A DNA stretch of 64,000 nucleotides from an uncultured Anaerolineales bacterium (GTDB lineage: Bacteria; Chloroflexota; Anaerolineae; CG2-30-64-16). The stretch is from positions 43,898 to 107,897 of the forward strand of contig CAYYTK010000002.1 in the NCBI GenBank assembly GCA_964474695.1. Direction: 5' to 3'. The notes beneath the pieces were generated by a model that was not told where the DNA came from, did no database searches, and saw only the letters and a list, made by a program, of their open reading frames with translations. Within the stretch, counting starts at the first letter, position 1, and each line of letters opens with the position of its first letter. The translations under genes were made by a program, and so were the position numbers. Shown piece after piece: positions 49,667 through 55,118 of this stretch.

Positions 49667-50422
49667 ATGAAGCGGCTACTCTCAACCATGATGATTGTTC
49701 TACTGACGGCGCTGGTCGTGCTGCCGTTGGCGACTGCGGTGGCTGGGCCTGCGCAGCAGGAGGCGCGACCAGTCATTGTCCAGCCCGCACAGGATGACGC
49801 GGTGCGTGGGGTGGTGCAGGTCGTCGGCACTGCTACGCATCCGCAGTTCCTGCGCTACGAGTTCTATTACGCGCCCTGGCCGGTGCCTTCTGACCAATCT
49901 TGGGTCTTTGTCGGCGACGCGCATTCCAATCAGCAGCCGCTGGGCTTGCTTGCCACATGGGACTCACGTTCTGTGCCGGACGGCGCCTATGCATTGCGCG
50001 TCCGAGTGGTAAAAGTGGATGGCAATTACCTGGATAGCGATCCACGCCGCGTACTGGTGGCGAATACGCGACCTATCGCTTCGCCCACATCAGCAGCGAC
50101 CGACACCCCGGAACCAGCTCCAACACCGGCGCCGCCCACCGCGACCGTCGTCGTCGTTGCGCCGGCCGAGACGCCGACGCTCGAGCCAACCCCCACTCTG
50201 GAGCCAGAAATTACGCCCATCCTGCCTGCGGGGCAGGAGACAGGGACAAGCCAGCCGGCGACAACGAGCGACGGGTTGACCGACCAACTTTTCAGCGGCA
50301 ATCGCCTGCTGAGTATTGCCAAAAAGGCGGCGCTCTACACCGCCGGTGCATTCGCGGCCATCGGCGCGTTCTTCGGGATCAAGGCGCTGCTGGCGTGGTT
50401 GTGGCTCAAGATCCGGCCGTAG
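49667..50422 (+). CDS. Secreted Ig-like-domain protein with Pro/Thr-rich linker and C-terminal TM anchor
   Basis: Signal peptide MKRLLSTMMIVLLTALVVLPLATAVAG, then VRGVVQVVGTATHPQFLRYEFYY...WDSRSVPDGAYALRVRVV, a PT-rich stretch and a terminal hydrophobic helix. Confidence 0.65.
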   Translation: MKRLLSTMMIVLLTALVVLPLATAVAGPAQQEARPVIVQPAQDDAVRGVVQVVGTATHPQFLRYEFYYAPWPVPSDQSWVFVGDAHSNQQPLGLLATWDSRSVPDGAYALRVRVVKVDGNYLDSDPRRVLVANTRPIASPTSAATDTPEPAPTPAPPTATVVVVAPAETPTLEPTPTLEPEITPILPAGQETGTSQPATTSDGLTDQLFSGNRLLSIAKKAALYTAGAFAAIGAFFGIKALLAWLWLKIRP

Positions 50423-50499
50423 GCAGGGGTCAGTGGGCAGGGGTCAGTGGGCAGGGGACAGGGGACAGGGGTCAGTGGACAGGTGTCAATGATCAGGGG
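50423..50499. repeat. Tandem heptanucleotide array (NCAGNGG x11) starting immediately after a stop codon
   Basis: GCAGGGG TCAGTGG GCAGGGG TCAGTGG GCAGGGG ACAGGGG ACAGGGG TCAGTGG ACAGGTG TCAATGA TCAGGGG. Confidence 0.9.
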
Positions 50500-50592
50500 A
50501 CGGACTGAGTCCTCCGTTGCTGGCAGGGTATGAACTTCGATTTCTTGCGATCACATCCATCAACACCCACTCCGACAGCCGGTCCGGCGAAA

Positions 50593-51210
50593 ATGATCGT
50601 CGGGCTGGGCAACCCTGGTCCGGAGTATGCGCGGCACCGGCACAACATCGGCTTCCAGGTAGTGGATCGCTTCGCGGATCAGCACGGCCTGACGTTCGAC
50701 AAATTCCAGAAACGGGCGCGCCTGGCTATCGGACAGGTGACGTTGCGAGAAAGCTGGAGCGGTCGCGTAGTGCTGGCCAAACCGATGACCTACATGAACC
50801 TCAGCGGCGAAGCAATCGGCGCACTGGCGGTCTATTATAAGATCCCGCCGGCCGATATCCTGGTGGTCCATGATGACCTGGACCTGCCGATCGGGCGCAT
50901 TCGCCTGCGTCCCGGAGGCAGCGCAGGCGGCCAGAAAGGGGTGGCCTCAACCATCCAACGCCTGGGCACCGAAGGGTTCCATCGCCTGCGCATCGGCATC
51001 AGCCGGCCCGGCGGGACCGGCAGCGATGCGCCGCCAGCCATGAATCCAGCCGACTACGTGCTGCAGCCCTTCACCACCGCACAGGAGAAAGAAATGATGT
51101 TCGTTCGCCTGCGCGCAGTGGAAGCGATCGAGATCTGGTTGGCGCAAGGGATGGAGGCAGCGATGAACCTTTTCAATGCAGACGAAAGACGACAGACCAA
51201 GGACGAATAA
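50593..51210 (+). CDS. pth: Peptidyl-tRNA hydrolase
   Basis: MIVGLGNPGPEYARHRHNIGF and VVHDDLDLPIGRIRLRPGGSAGG. The ATG at 50530 is an in-frame alternative that adds 21 atypical residues. The last 10 codons (ADERRQTKDE) are encoded by the repeat at 51181-51210. Confidence 0.85.
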   Translation: MIVGLGNPGPEYARHRHNIGFQVVDRFADQHGLTFDKFQKRARLAIGQVTLRESWSGRVVLAKPMTYMNLSGEAIGALAVYYKIPPADILVVHDDLDLPIGRIRLRPGGSAGGQKGVASTIQRLGTEGFHRLRIGISRPGGTGSDAPPAMNPADYVLQPFTTAQEKEMMFVRLRAVEAIEIWLAQGMEAAMNLFNADERRQTKDE

Positions 51211-51243
51211 CGTCTTCTGTCGTTCGTTGTTCGTCGTTCGTCA
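51181..51243. repeat. Inverted pair of heptamer arrays (GACGAAN x4 / complement x4) spanning the pth stop and ending 8 nt before mfd
   Basis: GACGAAA GACGACA GACCAAG GACGAAT AACGTCT TCTGTCG TTCGTTG TTCGTCG TTCGTCA. It can fold as an imperfect hairpin, 51195-51212 pairing with 51225-51242 (16 pairs, 2 mismatches by hand). Confidence 0.8.
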
Positions 51244-51250
51244 GGCATAC

Positions 51251-54200
51251 ATGAAACTTAACGGACTTCTCTCCTTGGGCCGGGAGCTTCCGGCCCTGCA
51301 AGATCTGATGGCCGCCCTGCGAGCAGGCCAGCCGCCGGACGCGGCCATCGAAATCTATCACGCGGCCCGACCTTACGTAGTTGCTACACTGGCGCTGTGC
51401 CTCAACCAGCCTCTCGTCATCGTTACCCCGCGCACCATGCGCGCCCGGCAATGGGTTGATGAGCTGCGCACCTGGCTCCCTGATGATGTGCCGGTTCACA
51501 ACTTCGCAGACCCCGACGCCCTGCCCTATGAGCGCATCCCCTGGGCGCCCGAGACAAGGCAGCGGCGACTGGAGGCCTTGGTCAGCCTGCTGACGTGGGA
51601 AGGCAGCAGCGAAGCAGCCAATCAGCGAATCGGCGAATCAGCGAACGACGCAGTACGCAAGCGATCTGCGGATCGCCCGCAATACGCAAGCGGTCCGCAA
51701 ATCGCCTGCAGCACGCGTCACGCCCCCATCGTCGTCGCCTCCGCGCGCGCCCTGATCCAGACAACGCTGCCCGTGCGCGAGTTGCGCGCAGCGCTGCGCC
51801 CGATCCGCCAGGGCCAGCCATTCGATCTGCAACGGACTCTCGCCGGCTGGGTGGGCCTTGGCTATGAGGCGGCGACTGTGGTGGACTTGCCCGGCCAGTT
51901 CAGTCGTCGCGGCGGCATCATTGACATCTGGCCGCCGAATCAGCGCAAACCGCTGCGCATCGAACTGTTTGGGGACGAAATCGACAGCCTGCGCCTCTTC
52001 GATCCTTCCACCCAACGCACCTTGACGCGCGTCGACCAGGTATGGATCGGACCGGCCAGCGAAGCGCTGCCGAAACTGGGAGAGCGCCTGGCGGACAAGC
52101 TGCGCGGCCTGGACTTCTCCCAGTGTCACCCGCCTGCGCGCAGCGAATATGCACAGGAAATCGAGCAGCTTACCGCGGGCACAGGGCACCGCCACCTGGA
52201 GTGGTACATCCCTTATCTATACAGCCAGCCTGGCTGCCTGACAGAGTATCTGCCGGCCCAGGGCGCCTGGCTGATCATTGAAGATGCGGCTGATCTGCTG
52301 GCCGCCTTCGCCGACCTGGCAGGGCAAGCTGAGCAGTTGTCCAAAGACCTGCGGAGCGCCGGCGATGTACCGGCCATCTTGAAGGCTCCCTACTTCACCG
52401 CTGAAGCCTTGCGCGAGCGCCTGCTATCTCGACCGATCCTCCACCTGGGCTATAGCACGCTGAACGGACTGGCCCGGCCGGAAACCGGCCAGAGCGCGAG
52501 GCAGCAACCTGTGGGCGCCCTGGGTGAGCAGTTTGCAGCCGGCCCGCGCTTCGGCGGTCAGATCCGGGCCCTCCAGGTTGAGATGGAACGCGCCTTGAGC
52601 AGCGGCGATCGCGTCATCCTCGTCAGCCGCCAGGCGCCGCGCCTGGCCGATCTGCTGGGCCGAAACGGCCACAGTGTGACCCCTTCCGACAACATCTCCG
52701 TTCCACCACCGCCCGGCCTCTCGCTGGTCCAGGGAGTGATGGAAGAGGGCTGGAAGCTACAGACGGATTTTAGATTGCCGATTTCCGATCTTGAATCGGA
52801 TCATCGATCCGAATCAGACGCTAAAGACAGCCAATCGGAAATCAAAAATCAAAAACCGACAACCCTCTGGTTTCTCACCGATGCCGAGCTCTTCGGCTGG
52901 GGCAAACCGAAGCCCCGGCGGCCGCAGCGGCCGCGCGCGCTGGCTCCTGAAGTCTTCTTCGCCGACGTACAACCGGGCGACCTGGTCGTGCACATCGAGC
53001 ATGGCATCGGACGATTTCTTGGCCTGGCCAAGATGCCCGTGGACGGTGTAGAACGGGAATACCTGCAAATCGAGTACGCTCAAGGCGATCAGCTATACGT
53101 GCCGGTGCACCAGGCCGACCGGCTGGCGCGTTACGTGGGCGCCGGAGAGACCGCACCAACGCTGCACCGGCTGGGCACCACCGAATGGGAACAGGTGAAA
53201 GCGCGGGCCAAGCGCGCGGTGGCCGAGATCGCCGACGATCTTTTGGAGCTATATGCCGCGCGCGAGGTGGTGCAGGGCCACGCGTTCAGCCCGGACGCGG
53301 CATGGCAGCACGATCTGGAATCGAGCTTCCCCTACATCGAAACCGAAGATCAGCTTGTGGCGATCGAAGCAGTGAAGCACGATATGGAACAGCTGCGGCC
53401 CATGGATCGGCTGATCTGTGGCGATGTTGGCTACGGCAAGACCGAAGTTGCGCTGCGAGCCGCGTTCAAGGCCATCATGGACGGCAAGCAGGTTGCGGTG
53501 TTGGTGCCCACCACCGTCCTGGCCCAACAACACTACACCAACTTCAGCCGCCGCCTGGCCGCCTTCCCGGTCACAGTCGCCATGCTCTCCCGCTTCCAGA
53601 CCCCCGCGCAACAGGATCGCACTATCACCGGCCTGATCAACGGCAGCATCGACCTGGTAATCGGCACCCATCGCCTGTTGAGCAACGATGTTGCACTCAA
53701 GGACCTGGGGCTGCTGATCGTGGATGAGGAACAGCGGTTCGGCGTGGCGCACAAGGAGCGCATCAAGCAGTTGCGCACCGAAGTCGACGTGCTGACGCTG
53801 ACCGCCACGCCCATCCCCCGCACCCTCCACATGAGCCTGACGGGCGTGCGCGACCTTAGCACCATCGACACGCCGCCCGAAGACCGCTTGCCGGTCAAGA
53901 CCTTTGTCGGCGACTTCGATGAAACGCTGGTTCGCCAGGCGATCCTGCGCGAGCTCGACCGCAACGGCCAGGTCTATTTTGTGCACAACCGCGTGCAGGG
54001 CATCGACCAGATGGCGGCTCGAGTGCGCAAAATCGTGCCTGAGGCGCGCATCGCGATCGCCCACGGCCAAATGCCCGAGCGCGAGCTCTCCGCGGTGATG
54101 CTTGCGTTTGCCGAGGGGGAGTACGACATCCTCGTGTGCACCAGCATCATCGAAAGCGGCCTGGACATTCCTAACACGAACACCATCATCATCAACCGCG

Positions 54201-55021
54201 CGGACATGTTCGGCCTCGCGCAGCTCTACCAGTTGCGCGGCCGCGTCGGGCGCTCGGCCGTGCGCGCGTATGCCTACCTGTTGGTGGACAAATACAAGAC
54301 CCTCACCGAGGATGCGCGGCGGCGGTTGGAGGCGATCCAGGAGGCGAGTGAGTTGGGCGCAGGCTTCCGCATCGCCATGCGCGACCTTGAAATCCGCGGC
54401 GCGGGCGAACTGCTGGGGGCGCGGCAGCACGGCCACATCGTGGCCGTAGGGTTTGACCTGTACACGCGGCTGCTCGCCCAGGCCGTGCAGGAAGCACGCG
54501 AACGCAACAAGCTCCCGCACACGGGCGGCGTTGGATCGTCCGACCACAAGCAGCAAGAGGAACGCGGCAGCGCCCTGGACGAACCGTTGGCGCCTACGGT
54601 GCAGCTCGACCTGAACCTGCCCGCGCGCATCCCCGAGGAATACGTGCCCGAGGGTGCACTGCGGCTCCAGCTCTACCGCCGCCTGGCCGGGCTGACAACG
54701 CTGGCGGCGGTGGACGAAATCGCGCAGGAGTTCGCCGACCGTTTTGGGCCGGTGCCGGAGGAGGTCAGCAACCTGTTGTACGTCGTGCGGGTCAAGGTGC
54801 TGGCGATCACTGCCGGGGTCGAAGCGATCGGCCTGGAAGAAGGGCAGCTACTGATCAAATGCGCGTGCCTGGAAACGCTGGATCGGATCGCGCTCCAAAA
54901 CACGCTTCAGGCGCAGGGCGTCCCCGCCCGCGTTGCGCGCCGCGCCATCTGGCTAGAGCTGCGCGAGGCCGGAGGCTGGCGCCGCGACCTGATGAAGACG
55001 CTGGAAGTGCTGCGCGCCTGA
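51251..55021 (+). CDS. mfd: Transcription-repair coupling factor
   Basis: UvrB-homology N-terminus, CarD-like RID (LVVHIEHGIGRFLG), helicase motifs GDVGYGKTEVA, LIVDEEQRFG and TLTATPIPRT, plus a TRG region. Start chosen at ATG 51251. It carries two repeat-encoded in-frame insertions. Confidence 0.95.
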   Translation: MKLNGLLSLGRELPALQDLMAALRAGQPPDAAIEIYHAARPYVVATLALCLNQPLVIVTPRTMRARQWVDELRTWLPDDVPVHNFADPDALPYERIPWAPETRQRRLEALVSLLTWEGSSEAANQRIGESANDAVRKRSADRPQYASGPQIACSTRHAPIVVASARALIQTTLPVRELRAALRPIRQGQPFDLQRTLAGWVGLGYEAATVVDLPGQFSRRGGIIDIWPPNQRKPLRIELFGDEIDSLRLFDPSTQRTLTRVDQVWIGPASEALPKLGERLADKLRGLDFSQCHPPARSEYAQEIEQLTAGTGHRHLEWYIPYLYSQPGCLTEYLPAQGAWLIIEDAADLLAAFADLAGQAEQLSKDLRSAGDVPAILKAPYFTAEALRERLLSRPILHLGYSTLNGLARPETGQSARQQPVGALGEQFAAGPRFGGQIRALQVEMERALSSGDRVILVSRQAPRLADLLGRNGHSVTPSDNISVPPPPGLSLVQGVMEEGWKLQTDFRLPISDLESDHRSESDAKDSQSEIKNQKPTTLWFLTDAELFGWGKPKPRRPQRPRALAPEVFFADVQPGDLVVHIEHGIGRFLGLAKMPVDGVEREYLQIEYAQGDQLYVPVHQADRLARYVGAGETAPTLHRLGTTEWEQVKARAKRAVAEIADDLLELYAAREVVQGHAFSPDAAWQHDLESSFPYIETEDQLVAIEAVKHDMEQLRPMDRLICGDVGYGKTEVALRAAFKAIMDGKQVAVLVPTTVLAQQHYTNFSRRLAAFPVTVAMLSRFQTPAQQDRTITGLINGSIDLVIGTHRLLSNDVALKDLGLLIVDEEQRFGVAHKERIKQLRTEVDVLTLTATPIPRTLHMSLTGVRDLSTIDTPPEDRLPVKTFVGDFDETLVRQAILRELDRNGQVYFVHNRVQGIDQMAARVRKIVPEARIAIAHGQMPERELSAVMLAFAEGEYDILVCTSIIESGLDIPNTNTIIINRADMFGLAQLYQLRGRVGRSAVRAYAYLLVDKYKTLTEDARRRLEAIQEASELGAGFRIAMRDLEIRGAGELLGARQHGHIVAVGFDLYTRLLAQAVQEARERNKLPHTGGVGSSDHKQQEERGSALDEPLAPTVQLDLNLPARIPEEYVPEGALRLQLYRRLAGLTTLAAVDEIAQEFADRFGPVPEEVSNLLYVVRVKVLAITAGVEAIGLEEGQLLIKCACLETLDRIALQNTLQAQGVPARVARRAIWLELREAGGWRRDLMKTLEVLRA
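51596..51727. repeat. Low-complexity repeat segment inserted in frame in mfd (insertion 1)
   Basis: AATCAGCG AATCGGCG AATCAGCG (51620-51643, 8-nt period). TACGCAAGCG occurs twice (51654-51663 and 51683-51692). GCGATC-TGCG-GATCGC is a palindrome. The segment encodes WEGSSEAANQRIGESANDAVRKRSADRPQYASGPQIACSTRHAP between conserved Mfd blocks. Confidence 0.6.
52760..52864. repeat. AT-rich nested palindromic element inserted in frame in mfd (insertion 2)
   Basis: The outer stem pairs GATTTCCGAT (52780-52789) with ATCGGAAATC (52834-52843). The inner stem pairs TGAATCGGATC (52792-52802) with GATCCGAATCA (52806-52816), with one mismatch and a 3-nt loop. My hand count gives about 40% G+C over 52766-52857. 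It encodes QTDFRLPISDLESDHRSESDAKDSQSEIKNQKPTT. Confidence 0.75.
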
Positions 55022-55027
55022 CGAGGA

Positions 55028-55118
55028 AACGTGAGGCGTGAAACGTAATGCGTGGTGCGTCGTTCGTCCTTCGTGGTGCGTGGTGCGTCAGTCCCCGTTC
55101 GTCATTCATCCTTCGGCG
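55028..55118. repeat. Tandem heptanucleotide array (NNCGTNN x13) in the convergent gap after mfd
   Basis: AACGTGA GGCGTGA AACGTAA TGCGTGG TGCGTCG TTCGTCC TTCGTGG TGCGTGG TGCGTCA GTCCCCG TTCGTCA TTCATCC TTCGGCG. CGT holds a fixed phase in 10 of the 13 units. Confidence 0.85.

Follow-up and report, generated by a model that had tools for sequence, protein, structure and literature searches.

Heptanucleotide repeats have been known for decades in cyanobacteria and Xanthomonas and still lack an accepted origin or function. The small dispersed repeats (SDRs) of Nostoc are reportedly tiny hairpin modules that are tied to heptamer arrays and also occur inside genes. The short tandemly repeated repetitive (STRR) heptanucleotides belong to filamentous cyanobacteria, with three in Calothrix PCC 7601 (cited in PMC4692102), and Rehm et al. 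2015 (PMC4692102) described heptameric repeats, GGGAATC in Xanthomonas and GGGGA(C/T)T in Nostoc, for which slippage was proposed as the cause. The Rickettsia palindromic elements (RPEs; Ogata et al. 2000, reviewed in PMC10969869) are insertions of ~100-150 bp that lie in frame in housekeeping genes.

The window analyzed here, a 64,000-nucleotide stretch from an uncultured Anaerolineales bacterium, contains an mfd gene that carries a nested, AT-rich hairpin in frame. We put the probability at roughly 80% that this insert is a translated, probably function-neutral member of a genome-wide, STRR-like population of heptamer hairpins in Anaerolineae. As with the STRRs, its phase-locked 7-nt tandem units go together with a period-7 excess in the genome and rapid change between close relatives. 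A literature search found no paper linking heptanucleotide tandem repeats with Chloroflexi.

An AT-rich insert at a turn of Mfd

The host gene (Table 1) encodes a transcription-repair coupling factor with the UvrB-homology module, RID, superfamily-2 translocase and TRCF C-terminal domain in that order (Pfam PF17757, PF02559, PF00270, PF00271 and PF03461). Among solved Mfd structures its product finds matches with E values from 9e-224 to 7e-201, the PDB matches covering residues 4-1246, and the gene caller's product from a strain variant (P0002) starts at the same Met as the mfd ORF. Translation of the ORF confirms the placement given by the sequence-only reading, with the insert in frame between EEGWKL and LWFLTDAELFG, where it encodes QTDFRLPISDLESDHRSESDAKDSQSEIKNQKPTT. 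The insert is stop-free, and the sole frame open across it is that of mfd. The predicted junction peptides read LQTDFR... at one end and ...NQKPTTLWFLTDAELFGWGK at the other. Measured G+C content, which that reading had put at ~40%, is 42.9% in the insert, compared with 68.7% and 65.0% in the 300-nt flanks and 65.3% in the rest of mfd. An assembly artefact is excluded, as the same insert with six substitutions is present in two independent Logan assemblies (SRR26159228 and SRR26159224).

Table 1 Features of mfd and of the hairpin insert, in window coordinates
Feature	Position	Strand	Details
mfd (transcription-repair coupling factor), host gene	51251..55021	+	1256 aa; ORF and translation
Flank segment AGAGGGCTG (codons of EEGW)	52744..52752	+	Pairs with 52860-52868; stem reaches conserved coding sequence
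In-frame insert, nested hairpin	52760..52864	+	105 nt = 35 codons = 15 heptamer lengths
5' arm	52766..52793	+	4 phase-locked heptamers, GATTTTA GATTGCC GATTTCC GATCTTG; keto/G-richer arm; GATT-core chain scan
Inner palindrome	52792..52816	+	TGAATCGGATC-ATC-GATCCGAATCA; AATC unit and its inverse
3' arm	52830..52857	+	4 heptamers, GCCAATC GGAAATC AAAAATC AAAAACC; C/A-richer arm; pairs with 5' arm
Flank segment CAACCCTCT	52860..52868	+	Partner of 52744-52752; pair 9 nt, 89%
RID (RNA-polymerase interacting domain) of Mfd	52961..53176	+	P0001 residues 571-642; 6yhz_A aligns with query 571-642, 3mlq_E with 574-639; PF02559

The insert lies between two beta-strands in place of a turn of ~3 residues. 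Canonical Mfd has ~3-4 residues at this position (A1 consensus GFELPxxxLxVxTE; the baseline in our comparison of relatives is 9 residues), and relative to it the insert is indeed a palindromic, AT-rich insertion. An AlphaFold2 model (mean pLDDT 83.6) matches the solved Mfd structures, assigns pLDDT values of 61-69 to the insert and >90 to the adjoining strands, and contains a short predicted helix over residues 218-228 of the segment. The RID starts 33 residues past the insert. The expectation of a surface linker ahead of the RID holds for the surface site and its position, but the site is a beta-hairpin turn within the domain preceding the RID and not the linker. The 35 encoded residues are probably tolerated as a surface loop that is largely disordered and has no function. 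Calling the host an essential repair protein was too strong, as to our knowledge Mfd is dispensable in the model bacteria studied.

Both stems named in the sequence-only reading were recovered. The outer one, 52780-52789 with 52834-52843, sits within a longer 22-nt pair (52768-52789 with 52834-52855; 82% complementary), and the inner one joins 52792-52802 to 52806-52816 (11 nt, 91%). As RNA, the 105-mer is predicted to fold at -33.7 kcal/mol compared with -17.2 +/- 3.5 in dinucleotide shuffles (z = -4.8; 1/200 shuffles as good), and the insert with its flanks at -39.5 kcal/mol (z = -4.9; 0/200 as good). TRF reports AAATCAA x2.4 at 52839-52855 in the 3' arm, the units being degenerate.

Heptamer arrays in the genome and in related mfd genes

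The whole 4.76-Mb assembly holds no second match to the 105-mer (116-nt region searched by BLAST), the 43-nt centre (<=10 mismatches) or the 25-nt inner palindrome (<=5 mismatches). Only the arms match elsewhere, and the shared part is a degenerate heptamer class, (GATTNNN)x4 ... (NNNAATC)x4. Arrays at other loci have this 7-nt unit class in common with the insert and nothing further; they differ from it in unit number, and their centres are unrelated. Further genomic copies, a prediction of the sequence-only reading, are thus absent as full copies and plentiful as related arrays of the arm's heptamer class. AATC-core arrays number 47, compared with 2 in a reversed-genome control; 22 lie in likely coding ORFs, and for 17 of these the reading sense is the hydrophilic AATC one, which yields peptides such as KSQIANQKSKIKN. 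Pfam-confirmed hosts of coding AATC arrays are RsmA, a Cu P-type ATPase, HsdM and aconitase.

More broadly, this genome has 229 period-7 and 193 period-8 arrays, and ~20 at periods 4, 5, 10 and 11. An inverted partner lies within 150 nt of 17/203 period-7 and 15/170 period-8 arrays (0-2 in reverse and complement controls), and 54/203 and 44/170, respectively, fall in open, coding-like frames as called by our own codon-usage score. The strict period-7 detector misses the mfd arms, whose units are too degenerate, and their membership in the array class rests on the phase-locked GATT/AATC core scan. The G-richer arm comes first in 26 of 28 array pairs, and intergenic pairs mostly follow directly after stop codons.

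The same turn is expanded in many relatives, the nearest named records being Anaerolineales, Anaerolineae and Caldilineales MAGs. Among 116 related Mfd proteins, 79 have 20-88 residues at the turn, corresponding to 11-79 extra, and 19 are at the 9-residue baseline. At least five unrelated heptamer units were found there (GATTNNN, CTGGAAG, NNACGAT, GAATGAT and GGAGACC), each of which is also dispersed through its own genome. Matches to the AATCx4 pattern range from 0 to 501 per genome (controls 0-5); CTGGAAG has 270, 110, 38 and 12 matches in genomes that carry it in mfd and 3 in G000; NNACGAT is confined to G010 and G022, and GAATGAT/GAGTGAT-type arrays to G004. Array load varies >20-fold within one family. 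For example, G008 (0 period-7 arrays/120 kb) and G021 (1/60 kb) have no mfd insert, and G011 (21/120 kb) has a site of 195 nt. In mfd-site inserts of >=57 nt, the G-richer half is first in 18/19. The flanking motifs share one open frame in all 29 readable relatives, whatever the insert length, which argues for translation through the insert. Judged from this frame conservation, the insert is probably translated, as the sequence-only reading supposed.

Unit types are scattered over the Mfd tree. Orthologous, alignable inserts are present at this site in five relatives that represent four genera (G001 of the same genus, G013, G014, G015 and G024). The sisters G019 and G005 have sites of 204 nt and 27 nt, the G005 insert having been deleted between CTGG microhomologies with a remnant left behind. 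At shorter distances, 4 of 1256 residues separate the Mfd of the strain variant from this one, every one inside the insert. The DNA of the 105-nt insert has 6 differences, compared with 9 at the 938 synonymous sites (ratio 6.0; Poisson p = 6e-4). One of them, 52813 A>T, completes the inner palindrome; the fourth 5'-arm unit of the variant is GATTTTG; and the predicted fold is kept and improved (-37.8 vs -33.7 kcal/mol). An intergenic array at 50435-50442 differs between the strains by one unit (7 nt). In four alleles from the genus the insert keeps a length of exactly 35 residues. Identity to the allele P0003 is ~49% within the insert (own count) and 84% over the surrounding region. The insert evolves fast, and other lineages show decay or deletion of the hairpin.

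Origin of the hairpin and competing readings

The arms of these hairpins consist of 7-nt (sometimes 8-nt) units in short tandem arrays, and we propose that such arrays grow by replication slippage; 7-nt loops are poorly recognised by MutS. The mirror arm would then be gained by fold-back (intramolecular template-switch) copying of the G/T-rich nascent strand. Within genes, the survivors would be those with a length that is a multiple of 3 nt, no stop codon and a location in a structurally permissive loop, and this filter would account for the same Mfd turn being struck repeatedly. Quasipalindrome template-switch mutagenesis and slipped-strand mispairing are established replication-error mechanisms, and they would be expected to alter unit numbers, create mirror arms and introduce palindrome-perfecting substitutions like that at 52813. 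We know of no case in which either process gives genome-wide unit sharing or fixed arm polarity. Slippage alone leaves the occurrence of few unit classes at many loci, and their use in mfd, unaccounted for, and the strict order of the arms demands an extra assumption under a slippage model. Two other accounts were set aside. A purely flank-seeded origin fails, as CTGGAAG matches native GWKL codons but is also dispersed genome-wide and the GATT type has no flank seed, so that local seeding alone is insufficient. Loss of hairpin/loop repair as the driver of array load showed no association across 41 genomes, array-rich and array-poor alike, with SbcD (TIGR00619) present in 40/41 and MutS1 (TIGR01070) in 41/41.

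The hairpins might instead be written by a lineage-specific, trans-acting process rather than by independent local slippage, a proposal that we regard as tentative and rather unlikely. Arrays of the unit classes current in a genome would be added, by copying or synthesis, to 3' ends at breaks or stalled forks and then mirrored; a ready seed for the CTGGAAG type would be at hand in the native G-W-K-L codons CTGGAAGCT. If true, such a process would explain why the G-rich arm comes first, why few units serve hundreds of loci and why each genome has its own 'dialect' at the Mfd turn. Given the range of array load within one family, comparative genomics should be able to identify the factor responsible.

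It is improbable that the structure itself is useful, either as RNA (by pausing translation between Mfd domains, providing an RNase site or stabilising the mRNA) or as DNA (a cruciform or protein-binding array). Strong hairpins do recur at the same site in many genera despite sequence replacement, with z ranging from -4.6 to -5.9 among NNACGAT- and GAATGAT-type inserts, similar to the value here; the strain variant improves its fold; and intergenic pairs cluster just past stop codons. Nevertheless, the closest orthologue, G001 (z = -0.85), and G015 (z = -0.84) fold no better than shuffles, and a conserved functional hairpin was dropped as the main reading on these grounds. In other lineages the site holds GC-rich remnants that lack structure (z from -1.6 to +1.6 in G006, G020, G017 and G016) or nothing, same-family genomes with almost no arrays manage without a hairpin, and template-switch mutation gives palindrome-perfecting changes without selection. 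Rfam searches of 52500-53100 (E <= 1) returned two chance-level hits, both outside the insert, and nothing matching it, and no relevant terminator- or promoter-like sites were found in that interval. Some selection for structure is possible, given the kept and improved fold of the strain variant. Separately, an intron or intein is unlikely, as the Rfam search of the same interval gave no recognisable ribozyme and no intein motif was recognisable; 35 residues is also far below intein size.

Still less probable is an RPE- or MITE-like mobile palindromic element that transposed into mfd and was then translated through, the origin favored by the sequence-only reading. The insert does resemble such elements: it is palindromic, AT-rich within GC-rich flanks and, as expected of RPEs and MITEs, in frame and stop-free at a structurally tolerant surface site (35 codons in a beta-turn); related arm sequences lie in frame in other conserved genes, and a large insert is present in one sister genome and absent from another at the mfd site. 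However, neither the element nor its centre has a second copy in the assembly, and the supposed copies share the 7-nt unit class only. Direct repeats sought flanking 52760 and 52864 were not found, so there is no target-site duplication, and the inverted arms are internal heptamer arrays with variable units rather than defined termini. The insert is orthologous across four genera, and hence not recent, and the insert-free sister is accounted for by its microhomology deletion. A discrete element that 'landed' in mfd is therefore already largely refuted.

Least probable of all is that the 35 residues are adaptive, for example as a flexible acidic/polar loop modulating the autoinhibition of Mfd or its contact with a partner near the RID, since the constant length in the genus, the proximity to the RID and the predicted helix are outweighed by the low pLDDT, the confinement of all strain differences to the insert, its low identity in P0003 and, family-wide, unrelated low-complexity peptides of 3-79 extra residues or absence.

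Implications and comparison with described systems

If the insert belongs to a heptamer hairpin population, as we prefer, the mfd turn constitutes a clean natural experiment in which one conserved beta-turn has been rewritten many times with different 7-nt units within one bacterial family. The 6x synonymous rate, the one-unit indel, the microhomology deletion, the arm polarity and the array-poor sisters allow the mechanism to be tested. The locus is also an example of how much low-complexity sequence of repeat origin can be tolerated in a conserved enzyme, and it carries a warning for annotation: AT-rich palindromic 'insertions' in Anaerolineae genes should not be equated with mobile elements or foreign DNA.

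Among described systems, the SDRs of Nostoc are said to be dispersed modules, whereas the mfd inner palindrome is unique in its genome. RPEs are likewise palindromic in-frame inserts at fold-compatible positions of housekeeping genes, but their families are alignable full-length and encode a conserved peptide, in contrast to an insert with no second copy and a shared 7-nt class only. The heptamers of Xanthomonas and Nostoc (PMC4692102) share other traits: they are genome-dispersed, some are inverted pairs able to form stem-loops, they vary extensively between close relatives at conserved positions, and the Xanthomonas unit GGGAATC contains AATC, as the mfd arm units do. Those arrays, however, are G4-forming and mainly intergenic, whereas the mfd element is AT-rich, non-G4 and probably translated in a conserved enzyme. 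The STRRs share tandem 7-nt units, a few classes per genome, hundreds of dispersed and mostly intergenic arrays, and rapid change of length and sequence. The differences are the host, a member of the Anaerolineae (Chloroflexota) and not of the cyanobacteria in which STRRs were originally defined, the units themselves, and the organization of the Anaerolineae arrays, which are often paired as fixed-polarity hairpins and lie, for a quarter of them, in coding-like frames.

An inverted heptamer array at a turn of Mfd

The insert in mfd, 15 x 7 and 35 x 3 nt long, has 42.9% G+C, as compared with 65-69% in its flanks, which confirms the AT-rich character noticed in the sequence-only reading; the encoded peptide and conserved flanking blocks are also as reported there. 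Both nested stems named in that reading were found, the outer one extending to a 22-nt pair, and the coding flanks supply an additional 9-nt pair. The predicted fold has an energy of -33.7 kcal/mol for the 105-mer alone (z = -4.8 against shuffles) and -39.5 kcal/mol with flanks (z = -4.9). Divided into 7-nt steps, the 5' arm consists of four degenerate GATTNNN heptamers (GATTTTA GATTGCC GATTTCC GATCTTG) and the 3' arm of four complements of this unit (GCCAATC GGAAATC AAAAATC AAAAACC), with an AATC unit and its inverse forming the inner palindrome of the centre. We conclude, with a probability of roughly 0.8, that this hairpin of heptamer arrays is translated, probably neutral with respect to function, and situated in a turn of Mfd that is permissive.

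The Mfd of the window matches solved Mfd structures strongly and over its full length; an AlphaFold2 model made for residues 304-648 (mean pLDDT 83.6) also matches such structures. The site maps, much as the earlier reading had anticipated, ahead of the RNA-polymerase interacting domain (RID), which begins 33 residues downstream. In the model, the insert itself (pLDDT only 61-69) lies between two adjacent strands predicted with confidence, where canonical Mfd has a turn of about 3-4 residues. HMMER aligns residue 542 of this Mfd with E. coli Mfd residue 444, and by extrapolation the insertion point would fall near E. coli residue 440, presumably the end of domain D3 (2EYQ structure). Elsewhere in Mfd is a further variable spot (see table), where two alleles from the same genus, P0003 and P0004, have the repeat-derived stretches REVGDRPEREVRDRPEREVGDRP and QSKQESSQSKEESSQSE; these stretches are missing from the Mfd of the window.

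Coordinates of mfd, its insert and other repeat features (window positions unless a contig of the window's genome, G000, is named)
Feature	Position	Strand	Description
mfd	51251-55021	+	1256 aa; ORF and translation
Insert in mfd	52760-52864	+	105 nt between ...EEGWKL and LWFLTDAELFG; encodes QTDFRLPISDLESDHRSESDAKDSQSEIKNQKPTT
Heptamer array	50422-50501		CAGGGGA x8.6, upstream of pth
Strain-variant deletion	50435-50442		Exactly one 7-nt unit of the intergenic heptamer array
Inverted arrays	51180-51242		AGACGAA x4 then GTCGTTC x3.4 across pth stop codon, ending just before mfd start
Second in-frame repeat insertion in Mfd	51607-51716		N-terminal UvrB-homology module; CAGCGAAT octamers x4.9, then 29-nt repeat x2.3; encodes ...SSEAANQRIGESANDAVRKRSADRPQYASGPQIACSTRHAP...
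Variable Mfd spot	about 52480-52510		Window Mfd residues about 410-420
Heptamer array	55026-55102		Directly after mfd stop
Strain-variant changes near mfd stop	55024, 55040, 55101		1-nt insertion at 55024; substitutions at 55040 and 55101
Cu P-type ATPase hairpin	G000:C8:147486-147568		In-frame GATT x4 // AATC x4, peptide DFRSSIADLRSEGSNIPDRKSQIANQKS, directly before GDGxNDxP motif; of all G000 loci, most similar to the mfd element
Aconitase	G000:C38:11163-14054		Two separate repeat inserts: GATT//AATC pair and longer tract encoding QASGIRGQASGVRGQASGVRDHESCTTHHAPRSTHHESD; Pfam Aconitase_C match split in two

A unique insert in an array-rich genome

The sequence-only reading took the insert for a mobile palindrome resembling Rickettsia palindromic elements (RPEs). 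This view has only partial support. The insert is a palindrome that keeps the reading frame and is probably translated, yet it is no discrete copy of a mobile element. In the whole 4.76-Mb assembly the element occurs once, the other 33 matches being restricted to the arms. Neither the 43-nt centre nor the 25-nt inner palindrome has a second copy there, even with many mismatches permitted, and no direct repeat was found at the insert boundaries. The search for further copies returned none of the 105-mer, and the loci matched by the arms are heptamer arrays that share the core but have different unit numbers and unrelated centres. Because only the arms recur, the centre is unique and a flanking direct repeat is absent, the insert lacks the features that define RPEs and MITEs (PMC10969869). 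An assembly artefact is excluded by the presence of the same insert in two independent public assemblies.

The genome as a whole (63.6% G+C) contains 229 period-7 and 193 period-8 tandem arrays, as compared with about 20 for periods 4, 5, 10 and 11, and a few unit classes predominate. Phase-locked AATC/GATT-core arrays of at least three units number 47, versus 2 in a reversed-genome control, and five of them, counting the one in mfd, are GATT...AATC inverted pairs. An inverted partner lies within 150 nt of 17/203 period-7 and 15/170 period-8 strict arrays (0-2 in reverse/complement controls), and inverted pairs are mostly intergenic or directly after stop codons. According to a codon-usage score for which the longest ORFs served as the training set, 54/203 period-7 and 44/170 period-8 arrays fall in open, coding-like frames, versus 48% of random positions; genes therefore contain fewer arrays than expected by chance, but by no means none. 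Among the AATC-class arrays, 22 of 47 lie inside ORFs, and 17 of these 22 are read in the AATC sense, giving hydrophilic peptides of the type KSQIANQKSKIKN. Pfam identifies four array hosts as ordinary enzymes with a stretched or split domain (RsmA, a Cu P-type ATPase, HsdM and aconitase), and the ATPase carries a GATT//AATC hairpin much like that of mfd.

Variation of the site among relatives

An mfd gene was found in each of the 40 relatives searched. Among named genomes, the nearest are MAGs of Anaerolineales, Anaerolineae and Caldilineales. Family-wide, the site between EGW and TDAELFG holds highly variable in-frame inserts, mostly inverted-heptamer-array hairpins. The unit is GATTNNN//NNNAATC in G000, G001, G013, G014, G015 and G024; CTGGAAG//CTTCCAG in G002 (of the window's genus), G011, G012, G019 and G023; NNACGAT//ATCGTNN in G010 and G022; GAATGAT//ATCATTC in G004; and GGAGACC//GGTCTCC in L066, a more distant Anaerolineales MAG. 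In certain lineages the insert is GC-rich, free of repeats and 15-20 residues long, and in most genomes of other families of the class the turn is short and without insert. Among 116 Mfd proteins from a large collection, 19 have a 9-residue baseline and 79 have 20-88 residues at the site, with peptides visibly derived from repeats. The flanking motifs share one open frame in every case; with 7-nt units, this implies that an intact, translated Mfd is selected for.

The unit in mfd follows the repertoire of each genome. AATCx4 patterns range from 0 to 501 per genome (controls 0-5); CTGGAAG arrays give 270, 110, 38 and 12 matches in four searched genomes with that mfd unit and 3 in G000; only G010 and G022 have NNACGAT arrays, and only G004 has arrays of the GAATGAT/GAGTGAT type. 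In sampled DNA, genomes without the mfd insert had 0 arrays in 120 kb (G008) and 1 in 60 kb (G021), and G011 had 21 in 120 kb. The hairpin in mfd is therefore one local outcome of a process that acts genome-wide and varies between lineages. The native left-flank codons for G-W-K-L, CTGGAAGCT, may seed CTGGAAG-type inserts, but such seeding alone is insufficient because the unit is dispersed genome-wide.

GATT-type inserts can be aligned with one another, centre included, which makes them orthologous and old. In an Mfd tree from which the insert was left out, unit types are scattered, and the sister genomes G019 and G005 have sites of 204 and 27 nt, respectively; the short site looks like a deletion between CTGG microhomologies. 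Over shorter times, the Mfd of a strain variant differs at 4/1256 residues, all within the insert. The 15 differences in mfd DNA comprise 6 in the 105-nt insert and 9 synonymous changes elsewhere, or 5.7% versus 0.96% per synonymous site (ratio 6.0; Poisson p = 6e-4; Fisher p = 0.002). With one change a GATT core is regained, with another the inner palindrome becomes complete, and the variant insert folds at -37.8 kcal/mol. Fold z values are about -0.85 for the orthologous inserts of G001 and G015, between -1.6 and +1.6 for GC-rich inserts, and from -4.6 to -5.9 for NNACGAT and GAATGAT hairpins. Judged from these predicted folds, the structure is not maintained over longer times, and the pattern of creation, fast change, decay and loss agrees better with a mutational by-product than with a conserved structure.

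Arm polarity, mechanism and published parallels

The keto-rich arm (G>C) is the 5' arm in 26/28 inverted pairs of G000, and at the mfd site the G-richer half comes first in 18 of 19 inserts of at least 57 nt, although these cases are not independent. Because the rule is identical on both strands, it cannot reflect gene or replication direction. The rule would fit fold-back copying of a G/T-rich nascent array or the addition of such an array at 3' ends. The favoured reading accounts for neither the arm polarity nor the genome-wide sharing of unit classes; an alternative, judged unlikely, is a trans-acting mechanism. Loss of hairpin cleavage or mismatch repair can be rejected as the cause of array load, as practically all of the 41 genomes encode SbcD and MutS1. 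In the array-rich G002, G011, G012, G014, G015, G016 and G022, the MutS1 reading frame is open throughout, but its match to the family model is split into pieces; the break, near model position 130 in most, is probably another in-frame insertion hot spot.

We found no paper on heptamer repeats of this kind in Chloroflexi. RPEs (PMC10969869) share with the mfd insert only the in-frame palindromic outcome. Also among the closest published parallels of this insert are the cyanobacterial STRR heptamers and two further repeats, GGGAATC of Xanthomonas and GGGGA(C/T)T of Nostoc; work on the latter two describes inverted pairs and rapid change and puts forward slippage as a hypothesis (PMC4692102).
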